This document shows positions 1 to 54,374 of a stretch of DNA of 55,879 nt, piece by piece. Where the stretch lies: the IMG/VR virus record IMGVR_UViG_3300018079_000013, positions 1 through 55,879 of that record; one strand, written 5' to 3'. The notes under the pieces are model-generated. The model saw only the letters and a program-made list of their open reading frames with translations, made no database searches and was not told the origin of the DNA. Both the position numbers and the translations under genes were made by a program. Position 1 is the first letter of the stretch; each line of letters begins with the position of its first letter. The DNA comes from a virus (taxonomy: Duplodnaviria; Caudoviricetes).

Positions 1-82
1 AAGCCGGTATGACGAACCCGACTGAGTCCCCGTCTGAGGACTCAATGATTATTCCTACAGTTTCATTTACGATAATAGTCAA
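1..82 (-). CDS. 5' part of a 50-aa hypothetical protein that continues across the window end (55879 to 55812)
   Basis: TTG at 82 after GGGAGGTAAC RBS; frame stays open across the junction to TGA at 55812-55814, overlapping the next GTG. Confidence 0.6.
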   Translation of the reverse strand, partial: MTIIVNETVGIIIESSDGDSVGFVIPA

Positions 83-88
83 GAAACG

Positions 89-154
89 TTACCTCCCTAT
101 CGCTAACAGAATTCCGATTGCTAACATTACTGCAACCACAATGAGTAATTCCAC
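89..154 (-). CDS. 21-aa membrane peptide
   Basis: AGGAG RBS, GTG start, VELLIVVAVMLAIGILLAIGR, almost entirely hydrophobic. Confidence 0.45.
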   Translation of the reverse strand: MELLIVVAVMLAIGILLAIGR

Positions 155-173
155 TGTGCTCCTAACTGCTGAT

Positions 174-304
174 TACCTAAATGGAGCCTAGAGTCCGGCA
201 TGGTTCCGCTTGCCCATACGCGCGTTCGCTCTAGATAGGGTATCGGTTGACTTGAAGCGATTTCACACCGCCTACCGGGTTGCTCCCTAGGCTCCATTCA
301 AGTA
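174..304 (-). ncRNA. Structured RNA cassette (closing-stem family)
   Basis: 18-bp inverted repeat 174-191/287-304, fully paired on the minus strand with two G-U wobbles; intergenic. Confidence 0.6.
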
Positions 305-364
305 TGGGGTAGCGTTGCCGACTGCCTGCGGCGTGCGCCATGATCGTCACGTGGAATTTTACGC

Positions 365-447
365 TACCTCAATGAGCTACACAGGTGCGCCTTATCCGAA
401 GAGTTTGCGCTTATGATTCTTACAGACCTGTGTAGCTCATTCAAGTA
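365..447 (-). ncRNA. Structured RNA cassette (closing-stem family)
   Basis: 22-bp stem 365-386/426-447: UACUUGAAUGAGCUACACAGGU/ACCUGUGUAGCUCAUUGAGGUA with G-G mismatch. Confidence 0.65.
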
Positions 448-448
448 T

Positions 449-590
449 GGAATCAGGGACACAGCCACTTACCTTTCAACCCTGATCCCGAATGCCGTTT
501 CACCTTATGCCGCTTGCCAAAGCGGATCACCTGGATTTACACGCATCCGGTTACCAGGAGTTAGGCTCATAGGTAGCTGTGTCGCATTCC
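449..590 (-). ncRNA. Structured RNA cassette (related stem)
   Basis: 11-bp stem 458-468/573-583 (GACACAGCUAC/GUGGCUGUGUC on minus) enclosing several hairpins. Confidence 0.45.
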
Positions 591-746
591 TATAAATTGT
601 TGACCGCTTTGTTTTGGGCAGGCGGTCAGTCTGCCAGGAGGTTGCTATTTCGCTCCTGACTCGGCCTCCCGAATCGTCAGGTTAACGCTATCCGATTTCC
701 CGTCGGTAGTCGGGCGAAGCGCCACAGATACGCGGAGCAGTGGACG

Positions 747-848
747 CTAAGCTATATAATCTGTGATTGCAAGATACCAAGCCAGCGGGACAATAACTAG
801 CCAGATAATTGCGGCCATTATCCAAAACACTTTCATTTCGAATTTCAT
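747..848 (-). CDS. Small single-TM membrane protein
   Basis: ATG overlaps stop of the DUF932 gene (ATGA); MKFEMKVFWIMAAIIWLVIVPLAWYLAITDYIA. Confidence 0.6.
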   Translation of the reverse strand: MKFEMKVFWIMAAIIWLVIVPLAWYLAITDYIA

Positions 849-1867
849 GCAATCACCGCCTGAAGTGCTGTCAGAACCTCGTTGTCTTTGTTTGCCATCT
901 TGCCGGTGACGACGTTCTCCATGTTGCGAATGTACCTCGTGGTATCTCCGCGCACGATTGCGAAGTGGTGATTCCACGTATTGTACGCTTGCAACACGCC
1001 GTATGCCGTGCCATTCCACGGTGCAACACGCGGATCTGAATTGTACAGCTTGATCAAGTCAGTCCGCTTGTTGTCGGCCATCGTCTTGCCACGTCCCTCG
1101 ACTTTGTTGCCTTTGTTGTCTTCGAGGGGAACCATGACATCGAGCAGCTTATTCCACTCGAAATCACTAACGGACTGTGCCGTTAGCTTTGCAACTTCGG
1201 CGGCGAAATCGTCTGCCATCGTATACACGATTTGCAGTGCATCGCGGGCATCCTTGATTCGCACGTCGCTGTACTTCGAGTGTTTGATCTTTAGCTCCTG
1301 ACCTTCCTCGCCGAGTGCAGCATCCTTCGTGTTGTCACAGACCACATCGGTCACGACTCTTTTGTAAGTCGTTGCGAGTGAGCCGTCGAATGATGTACAG
1401 GCGAGTAGGTTCGGGCGGAAGATGACACCCTCTGGCGTCGTGATTGAATCAGGCACTTCAACTGTTACGAATGCCTGACCACGTAGCTTGAGGAGTCCTG
1501 CCGCACCGATACCAAGGTTGCCTCCGTTACCGAGGATGGTTGCAACGTTGTCGAGCAACCACTCCTGGTATTGGTGCCCACGGTATCCAGCCTTGAACAC
1601 GCCCAACACGAATTCATCGTCAGACGTGACCATTGCCTTACGACCTGGAACCTCAGTGTAACCATGATCGGTGAGGATGTACAACTCCTGCTCACGTACC
1701 TCGAAATTGAACAGGCGACGAAGTACATCGTCAACCGGGATTGCACCGGGGTAGTGATTCGACTCGTCACCCTGATCCTCGTCACGGTAGTGCCAAGCGT
1801 TTCCGCGCTTGTCCGTGAATCCAACAAGGATCATACGGTTGAGCCATTCTGAAGTCTCGCGGGACAT
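845..1867 (-). CDS. DUF932 family phage/plasmid-like protein (TIGR03299-like)
   Basis: Motifs AWHY, LLACTSFDGS, VVCDNT, IKHS, GTAYGVLQAYNTWNHH; start reset to ATG 1867 after AAAGGAGGTAAC. Confidence 0.85.
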   Translation of the reverse strand: MSRETSEWLNRMILVGFTDKRGNAWHYRDEDQGDESNHYPGAIPVDDVLRRLFNFEVREQELYILTDHGYTEVPGRKAMVTSDDEFVLGVFKAGYRGHQYQEWLLDNVATILGNGGNLGIGAAGLLKLRGQAFVTVEVPDSITTPEGVIFRPNLLACTSFDGSLATTYKRVVTDVVCDNTKDAALGEEGQELKIKHSKYSDVRIKDARDALQIVYTMADDFAAEVAKLTAQSVSDFEWNKLLDVMVPLEDNKGNKVEGRGKTMADNKRTDLIKLYNSDPRVAPWNGTAYGVLQAYNTWNHHFAIVRGDTTRYIRNMENVVTGKMANKDNEVLTALQAVIA

Positions 1868-1915
1868 ACTGTTACCTCCTTTCGAGCAGTCCACACTGTT
1901 TTGACTTGGAGCACA

Positions 1916-2056
1916 AGGCTCCACGAGCTACCCGCCGGAGCGAAGGCGCAGCCTTCGCCACGTCACGCCGGTACGTTGGACGATTTGTACGTTTCGGGGT
2001 ATCCGGTTCCCGAACCTTTGTCGCCCCAGTATAACGACGGGTAGCTCGTGCAGCCT
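1916..2056 (-). ncRNA. Structured RNA cassette (closing-stem family)
   Basis: Stem 1916-1934/2038-2056: AGGCUG-CAC-GAGCUACCCG/CGGGUAGCUC-GUG-GAGCCU with G-G mismatch; multi-hairpin interior. Confidence 0.65.
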
Positions 2057-2075
2057 GCGCTAGCTCTGCACTAAT

Positions 2076-2258
2076 TCACGAGAGTTTCTTGAGTAGGACT
2101 GTTGCTCTTAGGATATTCGCGCTGTGGCCTCGTCGCAACGCTGACTCGATACTCGAATCCGCCGCCGCTGATTTCTCCTCGCGCTCGAATACGCTAAGTG
2201 CTAGTCGAAGCGTATCGAGTTCGCTCACGGTCATCTTGAGTGTGACCGACGCGTCCAT
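2076..2258 (-). CDS. Hypothetical protein
   Basis: ORF with GGGAGGTAAC RBS and upstream promoter motif. Confidence 0.7.
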   Translation of the reverse strand: MDASVTLKMTVSELDTLRLALSVFEREEKSAAADSSIESALRRGHSANILRATVLLKKLS

Positions 2259-2270
2259 GTTACCTCCCTT

Positions 2271-2462
2271 CTATCTACAGTGTAGCACACGTGTCAAGTG
2301 CTGGCGGATAACCTCACGGTCTACGCCGTGAACCTCTGCGGCTGCGATAGCCGCGTTCTCAAGCGTATAGCCTGCCTTGAAAGTCGCAGGGTCATCTTGT
2401 ATTAAGCCCTTTGCCAAGATGATTGCGTTGCGCGTTCTACAGAATGTGCAGTCACACTCCAT
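2271..2462 (-). CDS. Hypothetical protein with N-terminal CxCxxC
   Basis: GAGGAGGTAAC RBS; MECDCTFC; TAATG coupling. Confidence 0.6.
   Translation of the reverse strand: MECDCTFCRTRNAIILAKGLIQDDPATFKAGYTLENAAIAAAEVHGVDREVIRQHLTRVLHCR
2279..2297 (-). promoter_or_regulatory. Short-spacer promoter motif TTGACA-N4-TGC-TACACT
   Basis: One of 4 copies; the -10 lies just upstream of the RBS/ATG at 2258. Confidence 0.65.
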
Positions 2463-2683
2463 TACGCTGTTACCTCCTCTTCGACTGGGATTTGTCGCAC
2501 GTTCAGGTATCCGGCGCTGTATGCGTAGGGATGACGGAACATGTCCATTGCTTCGCGTCCGTCGTTTGGATACAGTACCCAAGCGCCGTCTTTGTCTGTC
2601 ACTTCAACGGTTAGGCTTTCGTCCTCGAAGTCGCACACAATTGCGACCGTTAGGTTACCTGCGGCACGATCGTGGAGGATCAT
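2462..2683 (-). CDS. Hypothetical protein
   Basis: Coupled ORF in the early operon. Confidence 0.65.
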   Translation of the reverse strand: MILHDRAAGNLTVAIVCDFEDESLTVEVTDKDGAWVLYPNDGREAMDMFRHPYAYSAGYLNVRQIPVEEEVTA

Positions 2684-2862
2684 AGCTCGACGTCCAAGAA
2701 TTTCGCGGACGTTTCTACTCCACGTCCGGTCAGACTGTACGTGATTCCGCGTGCCAATGCCTGCAAGTCCTGACTTGTTTGCGAATGGGGATTGTACGCA
2801 TTCGCCATTTTTCTCAGTTCGTCCTTCATAGCGCGGAGTTTGTCTCCGTCTTTCTTGGTCAT
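2680..2862 (-). CDS. Hypothetical protein
   Basis: ATG 2862 after GGGAGGTAAC. Confidence 0.65.
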   Translation of the reverse strand: MTKKDGDKLRAMKDELRKMANAYNPHSQTSQDLQALARGITYSLTGRGVETSAKFLDVEL

Positions 2863-2881
2863 TGTTACCTCCCTGTTTGTA

Positions 2882-3076
2882 CTATAGTACACACTCTCTG
2901 ATTTGAGAATTCAGGTCTTGTACTTCGTCCAGACCTGATTCGTCTGAAAGTGCTAAGTCCGAAGCTAGCTCACTGATACGGATATCCTCGGACGGTTGAT
3001 CTCCCGCGTACCGGACATATCGGTACAACAGGCGAAGTAGCTCCAACGCCTCTTCGTCCGTCATGTACGTTTCCAT
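2882..3076 (-). CDS. Hypothetical acidic protein
   Basis: GGGAGGTAAC RBS. Confidence 0.65.
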   Translation of the reverse strand: METYMTDEEALELLRLLYRYVRYAGDQPSEDIRISELASDLALSDESGLDEVQDLNSQIRECVL

Positions 3077-5631: not shown

Positions 5632-5661
5632 GTTTACCTCCCTGTTTGCCTGCCTGTTTTC

Positions 5662-5680
5662 AGTGTAGCAGGGCTGTCAA
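5662..5680 (-). promoter_or_regulatory. Short-spacer promoter motif TTGACA-N4-TGC-TACACT
   Basis: Same arrangement as 2279-2297; ~30 nt upstream of a start codon. Confidence 0.65.
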
Positions 5681-5731
5681 GTAGCACCCTACATCTAGCC
5701 TATTTCTAGGTAGGATAGGGTGCTACTTCAC
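5676..5731 (-). ncRNA. Short cassette/hairpin of the closing-stem family
   Basis: GUG-AAG-UAGCACCCUA/UAGGGUGCUA-CUU-GAC with G-G mismatch. Confidence 0.5.
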
Positions 5732-5738
5732 GTTCCTT

Positions 5739-5883
5739 TCTGTCACATGAGCCTAGCCTTATTACGGATTTATCCAGCCAGTGTGATTGATTAGCTGGTA
5801 CCGCGCCCGATATTCTATCCGCGCTCCGTCTTTCCTAGATTACGGGATGGCGTCGGGCATTCGTGCTAGGCTCATGTCACAAA
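5739..5883 (-). ncRNA. Structured RNA cassette (closing-stem family)
   Basis: Stem 5739-5757/5865-5883: UUUGUG-ACAU-GAGCCUAGC/GCUAGGCUC-AUGU-GACAGA with G-G mismatch. Confidence 0.6.
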
Positions 5884-6185
5884 GTCGGTTGACAAAGTGA
5901 CAATCCACCGCTTTTCAGTGAAATTGTAATACTTAGTCGTTTCTGTCACGAGAAGGTGTAAATTCCCACCTCTATTACGAGGGAGTAGTAGTTACTTACT
6001 AGTAAAGAGGATAGATTCCTAGGAAACTACCCTAGATTACCAGCTAGTTACTTCACCTTCCCTCAAGACAAAGGTGAGGATTTATACAACGAAGGCAACA
6101 CGCTACGCAATCGCGCAATCGTGAATCCGCGTTGTCACAAACTCGGGGTTACGTTAGCTAAGCTAACGCATCCCTGAATCTGTCA

Positions 6186-7455: not shown

Positions 7456-7851
7456 ATGAGCGATCAGCCTTTGTTTGAGCCAGTCGATCCCGATTCGGAC
7501 GAAGCGAAGCTTATCAGTCAGAGCAATGAAGTAGACGAGCAGACTCTTGCAGAGATTCAATCGTGGAAAACTGCGTTTGAGCAAGAATTTCACGAAGCCG
7601 AAAGCGCTGCGAAATCAACACCGCTAACCATTCGCGCACAATTGAAGGAGCTTGTACCTGAAGCTCTTACGCGCATGGCGAAGACGATCAAGTATTCGCG
7701 CGATGAGAAACTTGCATTCGCTGCATCGAAATGGTTGCTCGATGCGATGCTTGAGAATAAAGGAAGCTTGTCACCGGATGACCCGCTCGTTGCCTTCCTC
7801 GAAGAGATGCGGGCTAAGGAAACTACAGAATCGCCGACGGGCGGTTCGTAA
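7456..7851 (+). CDS. Hypothetical helical protein, possible terminase small subunit
   Basis: First gene of the late operon; helical ALTRM...AASKWLLD pattern; TACTAT 7 nt before ATG suggests leaderless mRNA. Confidence 0.45.
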   Translation: MSDQPLFEPVDPDSDEAKLISQSNEVDEQTLAEIQSWKTAFEQEFHEAESAAKSTPLTIRAQLKELVPEALTRMAKTIKYSRDEKLAFAASKWLLDAMLENKGSLSPDDPLVAFLEEMRAKETTESPTGGS

Positions 7852-7857
7852 GGCACC

Positions 7858-8292
7858 TTGGCTCGCATCCCTGCCACAGCGAGAAAGCCACGACTGTTCA
7901 TAACAACGAACGTCGTTGGACTAGGCATCGAGGACAACTTCGAATTCTTACACGATAGGCCGTATCGGTTCTGTTGCATTTGCGGGCGCGTGTTTCAGTC
8001 AACACATGACCGTGTTTCTGTAAAGCGATACGATTCCGCTCATGTCGTGGATGGAGCTTTTGAACGGGTGCTATGGGCGCAGAGACATGCGTATTCACAT
8101 GCGCAGTGGCAACACGAGGACTTCAAGCGCAGTGGTTTATTTGTAACACCGGCTGCGGCGGAACGTCTCGTGCCTTTTGGGATCATTCCGGTACAGGACA
8201 TCGTAGAGAACGAAGAGTCGCGCCATGCCGGTTTGGTTGCACCACGTGCGCCTATCGATGACGCCGAAACTAGTTTGAAAGGATACAGATGA
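7858..8292 (+). CDS. Hypothetical protein, possible Zn-binding
   Basis: CCICG ... HAYSH. Confidence 0.6.
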   Translation: MARIPATARKPRLFITTNVVGLGIEDNFEFLHDRPYRFCCICGRVFQSTHDRVSVKRYDSAHVVDGAFERVLWAQRHAYSHAQWQHEDFKRSGLFVTPAAAERLVPFGIIPVQDIVENEESRHAGLVAPRAPIDDAETSLKGYR

Positions 8293-8432
8293 TCCTTCAA
8301 GTGGTAGGACAACTACCAAAAGGCGTTGAGCCCGCCATTATCAAAGTTGAGCCAGAGATGGGCACGTTCGAGATACAAGCCAAAGATGGGACTGTCCTTA
8401 CACAGGGACAATTTCGCATCATCTGTGGGTAG
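8289..8432 (+). CDS. 47-aa hypothetical protein
   Basis: ATGA-coupled ORF MILQVVGQLPKG... Confidence 0.5.
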   Translation: MILQVVGQLPKGVEPAIIKVEPEMGTFEIQAKDGTVLTQGQFRIICG

Positions 8433-8479
8433 TTAGTTTGAAAGCACGTTTGTAACAATTCGCACAAGGAAGGAGTGGG

Positions 8480-8926
8480 ATGCCATTTTATGAAGTAACG
8501 TTCGAAACCGGCCGAAGCTCGGTAGCGTTTTACGAAGATGACGCTGAAGCATTGTCGGCGTGTGGCGAACAGCATAAACGAGCTGCAAATGGTTTGCCTG
8601 GAGGCCCGGTTGCGGGCCATCCGCCTGGTCAGGAAGGAAATCCCAATTGGACGGCAGAAAGAATCAAGACTGTACGCGTGTATAAGGAACATCCGAACGA
8701 GTACAATCCTGAGCAGACGATGAGTGCGGATGTTGCAGCGAAAGAAATTGGTGCGCTCATCAAAAGCCTGGCAGATGAGAACGGCGTTATACTCTTGCCG
8801 ATCCTTGCGCTTCACGTTCAGGGGCTTTCGCACCCGATGGTAGCATCGAAGGAAAGCTCGTTCGACTCCAATTTCAAAATGGTGGAAGATCGAGAACTAA
8901 CACTTGCTTTCGAGGGCAACTCGTAA
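8480..8926 (+). CDS. Hypothetical protein
   Basis: AAGGAG RBS, 148 aa. Confidence 0.7.
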   Translation: MPFYEVTFETGRSSVAFYEDDAEALSACGEQHKRAANGLPGGPVAGHPPGQEGNPNWTAERIKTVRVYKEHPNEYNPEQTMSADVAAKEIGALIKSLADENGVILLPILALHVQGLSHPMVASKESSFDSNFKMVEDRELTLAFEGNS

Positions 8927-36682: not shown

Positions 36683-36871
36683 TCATTGCGCCTTGGCAGC
36701 TTGAACGGCAGTTTTCAATCCTTCCAAAAGTACCTTGGCCGCAACGGGTGCGTTACCATTGTGGATGATTAACCATTCAATTCCCTCTTCTGCTCTTTCC
36801 ATACTGAGCGTCTTTTTGTAAATTCTAGGCCCATATTCATTAGCATCCACGGTTACGATAAGATTTCTCAT
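36683..36871 (-). CDS. Hypothetical protein
   Basis: ATGA overlap with the polymerase stop. Confidence 0.55.
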   Translation of the reverse strand: MRNLIVTVDANEYGPRIYKKTLSMERAEEGIEWLIIHNGNAPVAAKVLLEGLKTAVQAAKAQ

Positions 36872-39321
36872 GTGCAATCCCCCCATGTTGGGCCGCTAGT
36901 AATATCAGCGATGAATGGAAGAGTCCAGCCAAGTTCGTCCCTGGCGCAGGATTCCATAATCTGTTTGCAAATCGTACTGTACTCATCCACGTAAGAATCC
37001 TCTACCTCAGCAACGATGGAGTCATGTACGAGATTGACAATAGCGCATCGGGATCGATCTGTTTGAGCTTCGACTCCAATAGCAGAACAGAGCGTGAGAT
37101 CGCTCGCACATGATTGCGGATAAAAATTAATTCCTTCTCGGAAAGCGGCCTGCACGTTCTCGCGTGTAAGCAAGTGGAATCGGCGCTTTCTACCGAAAGG
37201 ACTGATAAGAACTCCGCGCTTACGTATTTCCTGCTCGATTCCAAGTTCCCACTCTCCTACTCCTATGAAGGTTGTCCATACCCAATCGATGTAGGCTTGT
37301 GCACGTACTGCGTCGATACCATGCTTCTGCTGAAATGTATCAGCACCCTGACGATAGAAAACTCCGAAGTTCACATTCTTACAGGTTGACCGTTGTTCCT
37401 TGGTGAAGTCTTCTCCAAAGAATCGTCGAGCGGTTTCGTCGTGAAGGTCGAGGCCATCAGTGTAAATTTTCGAAAGTAACGAATCCCCAGAAAAAGCAGC
37501 GATACATCGTAACTCTGCCTGTGAAAAGTCAGCTTGTACAATGGTAAATCCTGGGGGCGCATGGAACAGCTTCCGAATATGAGGTAGATCCTCTTTCTCC
37601 CTCGTGATATTTTGTAGGTTCGGCTTCGAACTACTAAGGCGTCCGGAGTTGGTTCCGTGTAGATTGAGTTGAGTGTAAATCCGAGAATCTTCATCTAGCT
37701 CCGCTCGTTCGATGAGTGAAAGTATGTAAGTAGATGCCTGTTTCTGAACTTTCTGGAAACGATGGTATCGCTTAATGAATGACTTGATATGTTCCTTGCG
37801 TTCGGCATAGTCAGGTGCTTCAACTTGGCTGACCATGTTACCCTTGCGCTGTGTTACCATCGCGCCTTTGAAAGTAAATCGATCCTGCAAAATTTCCTCG
37901 CGAGCAGCATCATCCACAGAGCGCTTTGGGTTCCGCATCGTTGGAGTTGCCGGACGATTCTGCATCGCGTGCTTGATACCCCAATCATCATAGAACACTT
38001 TTGAAAGTTGCGTAGGCGATCGAGGATTCAGTAACGCATTATCGATCTGGCGTTGCATTTCTAACGTAAGCGTGTCCATTTCAGGTTTAACGACGAACTC
38101 ATAGATGTCGGCAGCACCAGGAACATCGTAGACCATACCATGAAGTTCTACACCGATGAGAAACTCATTGGCTCGAAGTAAAAGTTGGTATGTGTCCAGT
38201 ACATTGTCAGCCTTAGCACGTTCCAACTGAAGTTGGAGCAGTTGATATGTGCCCCCAACATCCATACCGGCGTATCTGTAGAATTCATCATAGTCTGTTA
38301 CGATTCCTGTCTTTTTAGTTTTCTCGATTGCAGAGCTAGAGTATTTCGGCCAGCCGAATTCATCCATGAGCAAGTAATCCAAACCGTGCACCCCGATACG
38401 TTCGTCAGTACCACTGCGCTCGTCAAGTGTGTAGCTGAGTAACATTGTGTCATGGTCTACTCGGGCTTGGATTCCATAGCTGTGGCGCAAAATCTTAGAG
38501 TCGAATTTCCCTCCGTGCCATACAAAGCTATGTCGTGGGGATTCGAGATAGGGCTTGATGTAATGGCTAAGAAAATCTCCATCTTCCCAAAGTCTCGACC
38601 GCTCTCCGAATACATACGAAGTAATTCCGTCAATACTGAATTGCACGCTGATAAGAGTGGCTTTATGGGTGATTCCTCCCCTTGTTTCAATATCCCCTGC
38701 AACTCTACCTTCGTTGGCGCTAAGAAAGTCAATTGCGTCTCTTGCTTCTTTCCCATCTTCAATTACCTCAACTATCGGCAGGGTAGGTGGTGGGTCAGGA
38801 TGGAAGGCTCGTCGGAAGTCACGTTTGAGATTCGGGAACGTTGAATCATCTCGGAGTACGAGCGCAGGGTTATTTGCAGCAACAACGGTTCGTCCACTCT
38901 GCTCGATACGGTAGCCTCGATAATTGTCAATGCTTCCGCGTCCAATAAGCTCATTAACTGCTTCACGGCCGCAGGCGATAACGAGATCGATCCCGGATAG
39001 CTCTTTACGTAGGCGCGGAGCGCACGCTTTAATCGCTTCCGGTGGAACCACCGCATCGTCCGGTGCACATAGAACAGTGTTAGTAACGAGAACTTCTCCA
39101 CGCGATACTCCATTCATCTTGAGTAGATGATCTAGCACTTTACCTGACGGGCCTGAAAACGGTTTTCCTGCAATTGCCTCGTGGTAGCCCGGTGAACGCG
39201 AAACGATAGCCGCCTTTGGCTTCTGTGGGCTTTGCGTAGGTGCACATGGACGCGAGTACAGTGGGCACTCTTCGCACAGAGCGTCAGGATGTTTTCTTAC
39301 AACAGATGTAACAGCAGCCAT
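36868..39321 (-). CDS. polA: Family A DNA polymerase with N-terminal family-4 UDG-like domain and 3'-5' exonuclease
   Basis: CEECPL, PFSGPSG; exo DIET, KFD, YAGMD; pol GRLSSSKPNLQNI, ADFSQAELR, KNVNFG, VHDS. Confidence 0.95.
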   Translation of the reverse strand: MAAVTSVVRKHPDALCEECPLYSRPCAPTQSPQKPKAAIVSRSPGYHEAIAGKPFSGPSGKVLDHLLKMNGVSRGEVLVTNTVLCAPDDAVVPPEAIKACAPRLRKELSGIDLVIACGREAVNELIGRGSIDNYRGYRIEQSGRTVVAANNPALVLRDDSTFPNLKRDFRRAFHPDPPPTLPIVEVIEDGKEARDAIDFLSANEGRVAGDIETRGGITHKATLISVQFSIDGITSYVFGERSRLWEDGDFLSHYIKPYLESPRHSFVWHGGKFDSKILRHSYGIQARVDHDTMLLSYTLDERSGTDERIGVHGLDYLLMDEFGWPKYSSSAIEKTKKTGIVTDYDEFYRYAGMDVGGTYQLLQLQLERAKADNVLDTYQLLLRANEFLIGVELHGMVYDVPGAADIYEFVVKPEMDTLTLEMQRQIDNALLNPRSPTQLSKVFYDDWGIKHAMQNRPATPTMRNPKRSVDDAAREEILQDRFTFKGAMVTQRKGNMVSQVEAPDYAERKEHIKSFIKRYHRFQKVQKQASTYILSLIERAELDEDSRIYTQLNLHGTNSGRLSSSKPNLQNITREKEDLPHIRKLFHAPPGFTIVQADFSQAELRCIAAFSGDSLLSKIYTDGLDLHDETARRFFGEDFTKEQRSTCKNVNFGVFYRQGADTFQQKHGIDAVRAQAYIDWVWTTFIGVGEWELGIEQEIRKRGVLISPFGRKRRFHLLTRENVQAAFREGINFYPQSCASDLTLCSAIGVEAQTDRSRCAIVNLVHDSIVAEVEDSYVDEYSTICKQIMESCARDELGWTLPFIADITSGPTWGDCT

Positions 39322-52559: not shown

Positions 52560-53009
52560 TCACTCACGTTCCACCGTCCCGTCTGCGTATATGATCACGC
52601 GCGGGATACCTTTCCTTTCCGCTTTGCGTACAGTTGACCATGTGCCGCTTCGATAAAATGGCCTTGGGTTGAGCGGCCACTGCTGCGGACATGCTATCAG
52701 CATAGCACATGTGTCAACTATTGCCTGATTGCGAACCGTGTACGATGCAGGTAGCTCGACTCGATCAGTCGCGTCACGTGGGCAGTCTGCACGATACTTT
52801 GAACTCGCGGGCGGATGCACATGTACATTGTAACCTATTGCTTTGGCACTGGTATGTGCTTGTTCGTCGGCTCCGATGCAGTCACCATGATGAAACCAAA
52901 TGGCACCACTATTGCGTAGCTCCGCGAGCACAGTTCGCAGGGCATGCCGTTGCTTGCTAGACAAGCCCAATCGCGTGCCTGTGAAGCCAACGTGTACGAC
53001 TTCACTCAT
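52560..53009 (-). CDS. SLOG/DprA-like nucleotide-binding protein
   Basis: GFTGTR, HHGDCIGAD, RNQAIV, SGTWSTVR.A. Confidence 0.75.
   Translation of the reverse strand: MSEVVHVGFTGTRLGLSSKQRHALRTVLAELRNSGAIWFHHGDCIGADEQAHTSAKAIGYNVHVHPPASSKYRADCPRDATDRVELPASYTVRNQAIVDTCAMLIACPQQWPLNPRPFYRSGTWSTVRKAERKGIPRVIIYADGTVERE
52699..52717 (-). promoter_or_regulatory. Short-spacer promoter motif TTGACA-N4-TGC-TATGCT
   Basis: Third copy; intragenic, ~160 nt upstream of 52542. Confidence 0.5.
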
Positions 53010-53030
53010 GTTTGTTACCTCCCTTGGTTT

Positions 53031-53680
53031 ATTGAGCTACGTAGGGCGATTCTAACCTTAGCCCTTCGCATATTTTTGCGACTCGTCGTGGCATAGCCGC
53101 TAAACTATACCGCGTGCGATGCTACCCGCAATTTCTCTACCTAACTCCACTGATACAGTCGGCTCTATATGCACTTTACCATTCTTCAACAGCTCCATGC
53201 AGAAACTAGGCTCGACTGCATCTATGGGCAGTCCTACGTAGCTCACGGAGCGGGCGCAATGAATTGCTGATTCCCGATTTACCGTCGAGCGGGATAAAGC
53301 CCAAACGGACTCACGGTTTGATCAGAGAGTCAACGAACTATCCTGGATCGTTGAGCTTCTTCCTCCATTGCGTTTATCCCGCTCCGTCAACTACGTAGCT
53401 CAATGAGTGAGGCTCCCGCATGGCTTGCCACCTAACAAGTTGCGGTCGGGGAGCAGGTGTTTTGTGTTCGATCCCCACGTCCTCACTCATTCAACTACGT
53501 AGAGGTTTATTGCCCGTCGCGTAGTTGCATCTACCACGGGCCGTGTGCACCGAATGATACAGACATGCACACCTAGCACGGAAGACCTACCAGTGCGATG
53601 CAACGAACGGTAGGTAGCATCGTGAGAGTGACTACGCTGCAACGGTCACTCTCGTTATGAGCGTGGCTTGCAGGCAACAC
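53031..53680 (-). ncRNA. Tandem array of structured RNA cassettes joined by TGAGCTACGTAGTTGA-type linkers
   Basis: Stems 53033-45/53233-45, 53234-54/53378-98, 53391-412/53481-502; further hairpins to 53680. Confidence 0.65.
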
Positions 53681-53682
53681 AC

Positions 53683-53799
53683 TCATACCTTTATGAGTAG
53701 ATTTTCAGGTTCTACCCAAACACCATAATTCGCCATTATGATCAGGACAAACATGGCATCGATGTATTCCTGCTCGGTTTCAAACCAAGCAAGGAACAC
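53683..53799 (-). CDS. Small hypothetical protein
   Basis: 38-aa ORF abutting the upstream gene. Confidence 0.4.
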   Translation of the reverse strand: MFLAWFETEQEYIDAMFVLIIMANYGVWVEPENLLIKV

Positions 53800-53993: not shown

Positions 53994-54374
53994 TTACGCG
54001 GCGTTCGGGTTTTCAAGGTAAACCGTGCCGACCTTCGATTCCTTGTCGGTGCGGCTCGAAACCTTGACGTGCTGCACGCCTTCGGGCGCGTTCTTACCGT
54101 CGCGTGCGTTCTTGAGCGCCGTCGAGATCGAAGACGCTTGCTTACCTGCGAACTGACCCGTCTGAGTCGAGATTCGCGCGAAGCGCTGACCCGACTGCGC
54201 GAACGCGGTCAGAACCTTACCGTAGATGCCCTTCTCGGCTGAAGCGGCTGCGCCAGCCTCGGCCCACTCCTCTTCGGACATCGACTCGAAAATGTTCTCA
54301 ACTTCACTTGCACTCATGTCGCTGTTCCCTTCCTCTTGTGTTTGAACTTCAGTGTCTCTTCGTTGTCTCGCCAT
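53994..54374 (-). CDS. Hypothetical protein
   Basis: GAGGAAGG RBS; downstream of a canonical promoter. Confidence 0.7.
   Translation of the reverse strand: MARQRRDTEVQTQEEGNSDMSASEVENIFESMSEEEWAEAGAAASAEKGIYGKVLTAFAQSGQRFARISTQTGQFAGKQASSISTALKNARDGKNAPEGVQHVKVSSRTDKESKVGTVYLENPNAA

Follow-up and report, generated by a model that had tools for sequence, protein, structure and literature searches.

We analysed a 55,879-bp record of an uncultivated phage (IMG/VR record IMGVR_UViG_3300018079_000013, hereafter the window), in which two stretches, one at positions 174-746 (array 1) and one at around 53 kb (the 53-kb array), carry imperfect inverted repeats closed by a shared helix on the minus strand. 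The record is classed as linear without end repeats and is estimated to be 94% complete. Minus-strand genes form two blocks, one extending leftward from approximately 7.25 kb to base 1 and the other from 55.85 kb to 35 kb, with plus-strand structural genes in the interval between them. The replication module of the minus-strand block comprises Pol A, RepB-primase/DUF3987, AAA_24, DUF669, a PD-(D/E)XK nuclease and an SNF2 helicase. The four units that we find in the two arrays, together with their counterparts in other phages, are very probably structured RNA elements of the early transcript, belonging to a family that we did not find described. The features of both arrays are listed here, with folding given as a z score of each domain against 200 dinucleotide shuffles on both strands.

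174-304, minus strand: unit U2, type-A module; inverted repeat of 18 nt (89%); z -4.75 on the minus and -0.83 on the plus strand.
295-307, plus strand: 13-mer CATTCAAGTATGG, copy 1 of direct repeat D3 (100% identical); read on the minus strand, the U2 5' arm plus 3 nt.
305-371, minus strand: small hairpin; inverted repeat of 11 nt (91%); z -1.17 minus, -1.70 plus, not above chance.
365-447, minus strand: unit U1, type-A module; inverted repeat of 22 nt (91%); z -6.61 minus, -5.82 plus.
438-450, plus strand: 13-mer CATTCAAGTATGG, copy 2 of direct repeat D3; on the minus strand it is the U1 5' arm plus 3 nt.
449-590, minus strand: 142-nt domain closed by an inverted repeat of 14 nt (86%), family motif absent; z -4.27 minus, -4.04 plus.
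600-745, minus strand: stretch directly downstream of an open reading frame (ORF) for a small membrane protein; z -0.80 minus, -1.06 plus, hairpins not above chance.
53032-53045, minus strand: orphan element CCUACGUAGCUCAA, the perfect complement of the U4 3' arm (inverted repeat I4).
53234-53398, minus strand: unit U4, type-A module; inverted repeat of 21 nt (90%).
53391-53502, minus strand: unit U3, type-A module; inverted repeat of 22 nt (91%).

A preliminary description of array 1, made from its letters, held that it is tiled by five closed domains. The inverted repeats that were said to close 174-304, 305-371, 365-447 and 449-590 are all present, but only part of the tiling stands: 365-447, 174-304 and 449-590 are real structures because their folding beats the 200 dinucleotide shuffles, which is not the case for 305-371 and 600-745. 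One of the three strongly prefers the minus strand. On that strand no shuffle (0/200) folded as well as U1 or U2, and on the plus strand 43 of 200 did so for U2. The proposed preference for minus-strand RNA is likewise seen over the whole of 150-780 (z -4.83 minus, -2.27 plus), and the 305-371 stem does contain one G.T favouring the plus strand, as read from its inverted repeat. We also agree that no convincing ORF is present. The longest ORFs touching 174-746 encode 60 aa (413-595, plus), 56 aa (127-297, minus) and 54 aa (688-852, minus), and none of the seven small ORFs matched PHROGs at E<=0.01, the best one reaching E 0.061.

From its base inward, the module has an outer stem (3-10 bp), a quartet that is fixed, an inner stem (9-17 bp, mostly AUGAG/CUCAU) and a variable interior. 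In the quartet 5' UUGA stands opposite 3' UGAG, giving U.G, U-A, a G.G mismatch and A-U. Together the outer, quartet and inner stems span 18-30 bp, and the units measure 58-165 nt, with one of 244 nt. In the four window units the outer stem is UAC/GUA (array 1) or CUACGUAG/CUACGUAG (53 kb), the inner stem is 9-15 bp and the interior is 39-123 nt. U1 has a UAC/GUA outer stem, UUGA/UGAG with the G.G mismatch, a 15-bp inner stem, a 39-nt interior and a C(UUCG)G loop. U2 reads UAC-UUGA..UUAG-GUA; its inner stem is 13 bp, its 91-nt interior is branched, and it is the sole unit of the 24 tabulated in which G.U replaces the G.G mismatch. U3 and U4 share the palindrome CUACGUAG, and in U4 the AU/UA pairs after UUGA are exchanged for CG/GC (UUGA-CGGAG..CUCCG-UGAG). 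The minus-strand stem bases, UAC-UUGA..UGAG-GUA and UAC-UUGA..UUAG-GUA in array 1 as against CUACGUAG-UUGA..UGAG-CUACGUAG at 53 kb, confirm the compensatory C-G/G-C swap noted earlier. The shared 13-nt flank CATTCAAGTATGG is also real, although its first copy had been placed one base off. Readings of UUGA/UGAG as a K-turn or as box C/D-like were tried by hand and dropped, as both disrupt the register of the inner stem.

A covariance model of the family, R1, scored U3 at 78.5 bits on the minus strand (E 8.4e-20) and 28.5 bits on the plus strand, and U1, which is in its training set, at 56 bits (E 1.7e-13) and 20.1 bits, respectively. U2 reached 49.5 bits (E 1.1e-11), and U4 gave a local match at 53242-53390 (20.9 bits, E 0.0011). 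In the window R1 found only these four units, and because its next best match had an E of 0.15 the other hairpins (449-590, 305-371, 600-745, 1922-2050, 5679-5728 and 5745-5877) are not members; at 449-590 it gave no match at all. Array 1 is thus, as first proposed, a second array like that at 53 kb, in which what the units have in common is the base of the closing stem, the interiors being mutually unrelated. Membership extends to 365-447 and 174-304 and not to the other three of the five domains.

Compensatory change supports the helix across the family. In an alignment (A1) of 23 units, the 24th (244 nt) being omitted for its length, 91.1% of cells form standard pairs, as against 68.9% in shuffles and 32-41% with partners slid, a percentage that is inflated by the selection of these units for pairing (inner stem at least 9, outer at least 2). 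Nineteen of the 23 pairs change on both sides (118 cells), and none of 500 shuffles reached any of the four A1 measures. While the search pattern fixes the quartet in most units, an A-U pair two positions outside it is invariant in 24/24 units though not required by the pattern. R1 recovered untrained units, including CUGA..UGAG variants that retain the G.G (L093 683-764, 48.9 bits; L089 870-979, 42.9 bits; G and L numbers are our handles for genomes and loci). The positions at which the two arms differ, two in number, are common to every lineage. Several observations indicate RNA of the gene strand: by our tally, stem positions not used for selection hold 26 G.U/U.G against 11 A.C/C.A cells, the sense-like strand folds better in six of seven units, and the next downstream gene lies on the strand of the unit in 6/6 records; the G005 T-arm-like hairpins and the L115 tmRNA gene, described below, count here as well.

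Beyond the window, we find the helix in a further five viral records, in nine more metagenome contigs and in two additional viral contigs, the G+C of the records ranging from 38 to 55%. The search pattern matched seven places in the five other records (reversed-pattern control, 0), and a relaxed scan of six records matched 16 places, compared with 0-3 in 10 shuffles and 2 in reversed sequence. The first pattern scan of viral contigs returned 73 stretches, approximately the estimated chance number; seven are real by R1, and 66 of the 73 loci have no R1 match. The second viral scan added 10 new loci, two of them real, and a stricter pattern in metagenomes gave 10 contigs, with one to three units in nine of them. 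Among 185,579 species genomes, two pattern scans produced 0 and then 9 matches without a true member (one match, L122, scored 22.4 bits but folds at z -0.63), and therefore identify no host. The members form three groups: the window lineage (G001, G002, L088, L093, L094, L096 and L097), which has helicase, nuclease or early genes in common with the window; the low-GC pair G003 and G004; and G005. A BLAST search for a partner protein across six records found only terminase, Pol A and SNF2 helicase common to four of the six, and genes neighbouring the units, searched against Pfam and PHROGs, showed nothing RNA-related.

These results leave very little room for the view that the arrays are nothing specific, i.e. 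chance palindromes or a cryptic coding region, which we regard as extremely improbable. It could draw on the two of five proposed domains that fold no better than shuffles, and on the excess of exact inverted repeats of at least 10 bp over the whole window (19 against 9.1 +/- 3.0 in shuffles, maximum 18), approximately twofold. It is contradicted by the covariation and R1 results, the motif being found with compensatory changes in many independent contigs, as well as by the lack of ORF or family matches. The sequence itself is present in two DNA runs from freshwater sediment, from two studies; window positions 1-3000 are identical in both, with no differences and no joints, and a 708-nt contig from the second study extends 282 nt beyond base 1 of the window. 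A nucleotide search with both arrays gave no DNA-level match among cultured phages, and the closest cultured-phage matches of the SNF2 helicase are at most 25% identical.

The 53-kb array is syntenic, following the homologue of window gene 53994-54374 in G002, L088, L094, L096 and L097 with one to three units at the site. The replication genes (SNF2 helicase, PD-(D/E)XK nuclease, primase-helicase and Pol A) lie downstream of it. Among the relatives that could be inspected, none has an equivalent of array 1; the DUF932 neighbour of array 1, used as an anchor, led to one relative at 48% identity that is not syntenic. The gene order of the relative L088 is compatible with a permuted circle. The placement of array 1 at the distal end of the early operon is doubtful on two counts: a Shine-Dalgarno (SD) sequence and GTG stand 19 nt past its last unit, and in L088 the small early genes continue to an array of the 53-kb type.

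It had been suggested that related genomes could show gain, loss or swapping of interiors between conserved stems. We found one conserved stem with different interiors and one to three units per syntenic site, but swapping itself is not demonstrated. U4 (53234-53398) and L094 2275-2423 have identical stems (21 and 19 nt), whereas their interiors cannot be aligned (z 1.1); as the proteins flanking the pair are only approximately 40% identical, ordinary divergence of an interior under no constraint accounts for this just as well. Copies inside one genome have unrelated interiors, and interiors of 32-123 nt hold no credible ORF. Two G005 units (L087:8249-8377 and 8385-8494, plus strand) contain T-arm-like hairpins, ggggTTCGAGTccct and gggTTCAAATccc. 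These are the only ones in 8,273 nt of arrays (2 sense, 0 antisense), ARAGORN found no tRNA at the G005 units, and one of the units has a weak, sub-threshold tRNA-like mascRNA match (15.8 bits, E 1.9). In L115 a phage tmRNA gene is present at 7825-8121 (plus strand; Rfam 79 bits, 47 needed); its predicted tag is unusual, and it encodes no CCA. Starting approximately 6 nt after this gene, on the same strand, two units occupy 8128-8358. The same contig has, at 8832-8889 after a 118-aa ORF, a minimal, cargo-less unit, and because its interior is almost absent the stem itself would carry the function.

That the units act at the level of DNA, as single-stranded hairpins serving as attC-like recombination sites, as mobile palindromes of the REP/MITE kind, or as signals for priming or for an origin beside the replication module, is quite improbable. 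Integron attC sites form arrays of imperfect inverted repeats whose ends alone are conserved and whose unpaired bases mark one strand, and the arrays described here resemble them in their imperfect repeats, conserved ends, conserved mismatch and variable interiors. Similarly, REP/REPIN elements are clustered extragenic palindromes inside operons, preceded by GTAG, as the stems are here, and retron non-coding RNAs carry inverted repeats (a1/a2) at both ends of a structured RNA. The position of the 53-kb array upstream of replication genes and the varying unit number (1 to 3) at its syntenic site would also fit DNA elements, and G.T wobbles are tolerable in one DNA strand too. However, the window has no tyrosine or serine recombinase, Y1 HUH transposase or reverse transcriptase. 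It lacks a Phage_integrase or Resolvase match, its interiors, unlike integron cassettes, have no ORFs, and its arms are not RYYYAAC...GTTRRRY. It has no Y1_Tnp match of the kind that would accompany REP/REPIN (RAYT) elements, and copies in the same genome do not have interiors in common, unlike MITEs and REPINs. An RVT_1 match, as for a retron, is also absent, and the unpaired G lies within a continuous helix and not at its inner end. Arms that differ at the same two positions per lineage are not predicted for duplex-bound terminal repeats, the absence of a true member from the two pattern scans of the 185,579 species genomes gives no sign of spread to host chromosomes, and the sense-strand T-arm cargo and the tmRNA neighbour favour RNA.

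We tentatively favour, short of calling it probable, the reading that the units are co-transcribed RNA modules whose conserved base is where a double-strand-specific factor binds or cuts, host RNase III being the default candidate. Positions 174-746 would then be a non-coding part of the leftward (minus-strand) early transcript, and the site that is recognised or cut would be the conserved base, in which about two helical turns contain a single mismatch amid nearly two-fold symmetry. A cut there would divide the polycistronic early RNA, leaving a stable hairpin on the upstream piece, and the downstream message would begin a few bases ahead of its ribosome-binding site. The interior would be optional cargo or ballast, tRNA-like in one phage and absent in one unit. 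We infer transcription, cleavage and the identity of the factor from the family, its structure, its strand and its positions. In six cases, including window 174-304, 11-21 nt separate the end of the last unit in an array from an SD and start codon, and the 18-30 bp of helix agree with what RNase III accepts (at least about 20 bp, where an internal mismatch may occur). The mismatched helix of about two turns, located ahead of ribosome-binding sites and beside a stable-RNA gene, is in keeping with an RNase III-type processing signal. The cargo-less L115 unit and the constancy of stems whose interiors have diverged also speak for this reading.

The hairpins cut by RNase III in phage early transcripts, such as T7 R1.1, and the rRNA processing stalks are likewise helices of about two turns in polycistronic RNA, on the gene strand and near the next ribosome-binding site, with a mismatch or internal loop near the base and a helix formed from the flanks of a structured RNA. 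They differ from the present units, in which a fixed UUGA/UGAG quartet with G.G, not a known determinant, closes branched, variable interiors of up to 123 nt, and tandem units occur without genes between them. One account describes the ideal RNase III substrate as approximately 22 bp and two-fold symmetric, and reports that mismatches in the target permit cleavage of a single strand, leaving protective 3' hairpins (PMC3867540).

Several points weigh against this reading. The only two runs on record that contain the sequence are of DNA, and the selection of the A1 units for pairing and the fixing of the quartet by the search pattern, given above, count here too. A requirement of RNase III for a fixed sequence such as UUGA/UGAG is not known, and a motif this conserved suggests a more specific reader. 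By our own geometry, the dyad of an RNase III cut with 2-nt overhangs would fall between base pairs and not on one. Tandem units without a gene between them (U3-U4; three consecutive in G005) are unnecessary for simple separation of mRNAs, and the window has no RNase III gene. Finally, some orthologous interiors are conserved (G001a/L089a, z 16.4; L094b/G002b, z 9.6) which, like the two tRNA-like interiors, argues that the cargo matters. The strictness of the conservation, the tandem arrangement and the tRNA-like cargo of some units would also suit a dedicated binding protein and a modular role like that of Y RNAs.

A modular RNA of the Y-RNA type, with the stem as a handle for one protein (Ro60/Rsr of the host or an unrecognised analogue) and the variable interior, sometimes tRNA-like, as an effector that tethers or decoys a second factor, is nonetheless unlikely. 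Y RNAs have been described as modular, with a long stem formed by the ends and carrying the Ro60 site plus a variable effector module (10.1101/312249). YrlA (Rfam RF02553) and YrlB also resemble the units in combining a terminal stem that bears a short motif in its 5' strand with a variable, sometimes tRNA-like module, in size (80-130 nt, overlapping the 58-165 nt, and one of 244, found here), in standing side by side in several copies, like our tandem units, and in occurring in phages. The 5' strand of the units reads GUUGAAUG in 16/24 cases, which may be compared with the YrlA motif, given as GNCGAAN0-1G near the 5' end in the published account (PMC4201824). The Rfam consensus of YrlA (5' cggCgaAUGC, 3' cUuGucGccg) has GAAUG and UUG in common with the arms, their order with respect to the basal helix being identical, and the T-arm-like hairpins and weak mascRNA match of G005 point the same way.

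Yet every defining feature of YrlA that could be tested is absent. A gene for TROVE (Ro60) was found in none of the six phage records by a search that detected TROVE in its Deinococcus and Bacteroides controls, so that none lies within approximately 4 kb on the same strand, whereas the YrlA genes of the published account are within 4 kb of rsr (PMC4201824). The YrlA model gave no match on the window arrays at E<=10, and its best score anywhere, 19 bits against the 69 needed, was in L115 and rests on the tmRNA T arm. The conserved C of the YrlA motif is U in 24/24 units ((G/A/C/U)UUGAAUG, with UUGA fixed by the pattern), and the YrlA letters lie in an internal loop, whereas in the units they are paired except for the G.G. 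T-arm-like hairpins are confined to the two G005 units, the window arrays having no T or D stem-loops. It is somewhat unlikely that the phages use a cassette system of their own, in which one handle helix read by a single protein presents or releases interchangeable cargo RNAs. This would be a Ro-independent counterpart of the Y RNAs, with arrays gaining and losing units and the orphan letting the last unit switch partners.

The orphan element at 53032-53045 stands approximately 20 nt ahead of the SD and ATG of a 149-aa gene. Its sense-strand form, CGUAGCUCAA, is found once per array, 30-330 nt downstream of a unit, in 9/9 arrays of the GUAG/CUAC subtype (the window, L083, L084, L088, L089, L094, L096, L097 and L115), and in the window and L115 it lies approximately 20-25 nt before the SD. 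The window has two matches to CGUAGCUCAA against 0.08 expected, one being the orphan and the other the U3 3' arm on the plus strand. A possible switch is suggested by this anti-arm. We also note that CGUAGCUCAA agrees letter for letter with the 5' half of the tRNA/YrlA D-arm consensus; the unit arms may be derived from a tRNA fragment. An 8-base palindrome, CTACGTAG, occurs six times in the window (53037, 53234, 53391, 53495, 30243 and 39773), four of them within the 53-kb array, where it is common to neighbouring units.

Such a switch would make the units cis-acting riboregulators, in which the 3' arm of the last unit pairs either with its imperfect 5' arm or with the perfect complement downstream and so controls translation or stability of the next gene, possibly through a mismatch-binding protein. 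Besides the constancy of the orphan and its place before the SD, this proposal could invoke the six last units that end 11-21 nt before an SD and start codon, and, in array 1, the overlap of the U1 3' arm with the 5' arm of the 305-371 hairpin (UGAGGUAGCGU), the two structures being mutually exclusive. However, that alternative helix does not fold above chance, some units have no gene directly after them, and the genes that do follow share no homology, leaving no common regulatory logic visible. The proposal has no known ligand or protein, and the orphan could instead be what is left of a decayed unit or, given its YrlA/tRNA D-arm consensus letters, of a tRNA D arm. We consider the riboregulator improbable.

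Neither Rfam 15 nor, in a search of article texts, the literature describes the motif. Rfam 15 gave no match in the window at gathering score; over 100-800 it returned only snoR118 (13.3 bits, 44 needed), over 52990-53760 nothing, and in the relatives L083, L084, L085 and L087 nothing at E<=1. A tRNA array was rejected, with 0 ARAGORN genes in the window and no Rfam match at gathering score or E<=10. Models for hammerhead, twister, pistol, hatchet and HDV ribozymes are all in Rfam, and these self-cleaving ribozymes were rejected as well, none matching either array at E<=10. Recurring in related phages and absent from the RNA family catalogue, the motif looks, as far as its sequence goes, like a new processing or protein-binding signal. 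If so, it would provide a sequence-defined handle for small RNAs in uncultivated phages, whose RNA biology is almost unknown, and would mean that phages package diverse small RNAs, some tRNA-like, within a common frame. The conserved G.G mismatch in its two-fold symmetric context offers a concrete mutable target for finding the nuclease or protein that reads it, and the motif is short and specific enough for RNA family catalogues and genome annotation.

Array 1 is bracketed by two tiny hydrophobic ORFs on the minus strand:

89-154, minus strand: possible 21-codon hydrophobic ORF (VELLIVVAVMLAIGILLAIGR), beginning 19 nt after U2 behind AGGAG with a GTG start.
747-848, minus strand: 33-codon membrane-like ORF (MKFEMKVFWIMAAIIWLVIVPLAWYLAITDYIA) from the ORF list, the last gene before array 1.

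The start of the second overlaps the stop of the preceding gene (ATGA), which matches DUF932 (E 4.6e-34). Promoter and terminator scans remained at or below the level of shuffles. In gaps of the same operon, 1922-2050, 5679-5728 and 5745-5877 form 13-bp perfect stems (R1 E 0.15-0.27), several of which contain GAGCUAC or GAGCCUAG, like the family stems. The stretch 5640-6160 runs for approximately 520 nt without an ORF above 40 aa and holds four TGTCACR in 400 nt (5741-6139), the genome-wide count of TGTCACR being at chance. The G001 and G002 arrays (L083:8240-8870, minus; L084:11420-12180, plus) contain a second conserved element, absent from the window, in which two perfectly conserved 18-nt blocks, CGGCAAACUCGUAGCUA.. 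and CGUAGGCCGCGCACACUA, flank a hairpin. The family A DNA polymerase of the window (36868-39321, minus strand) carries an N-terminal uracil-DNA-glycosylase-like domain (E 2.4e-18).

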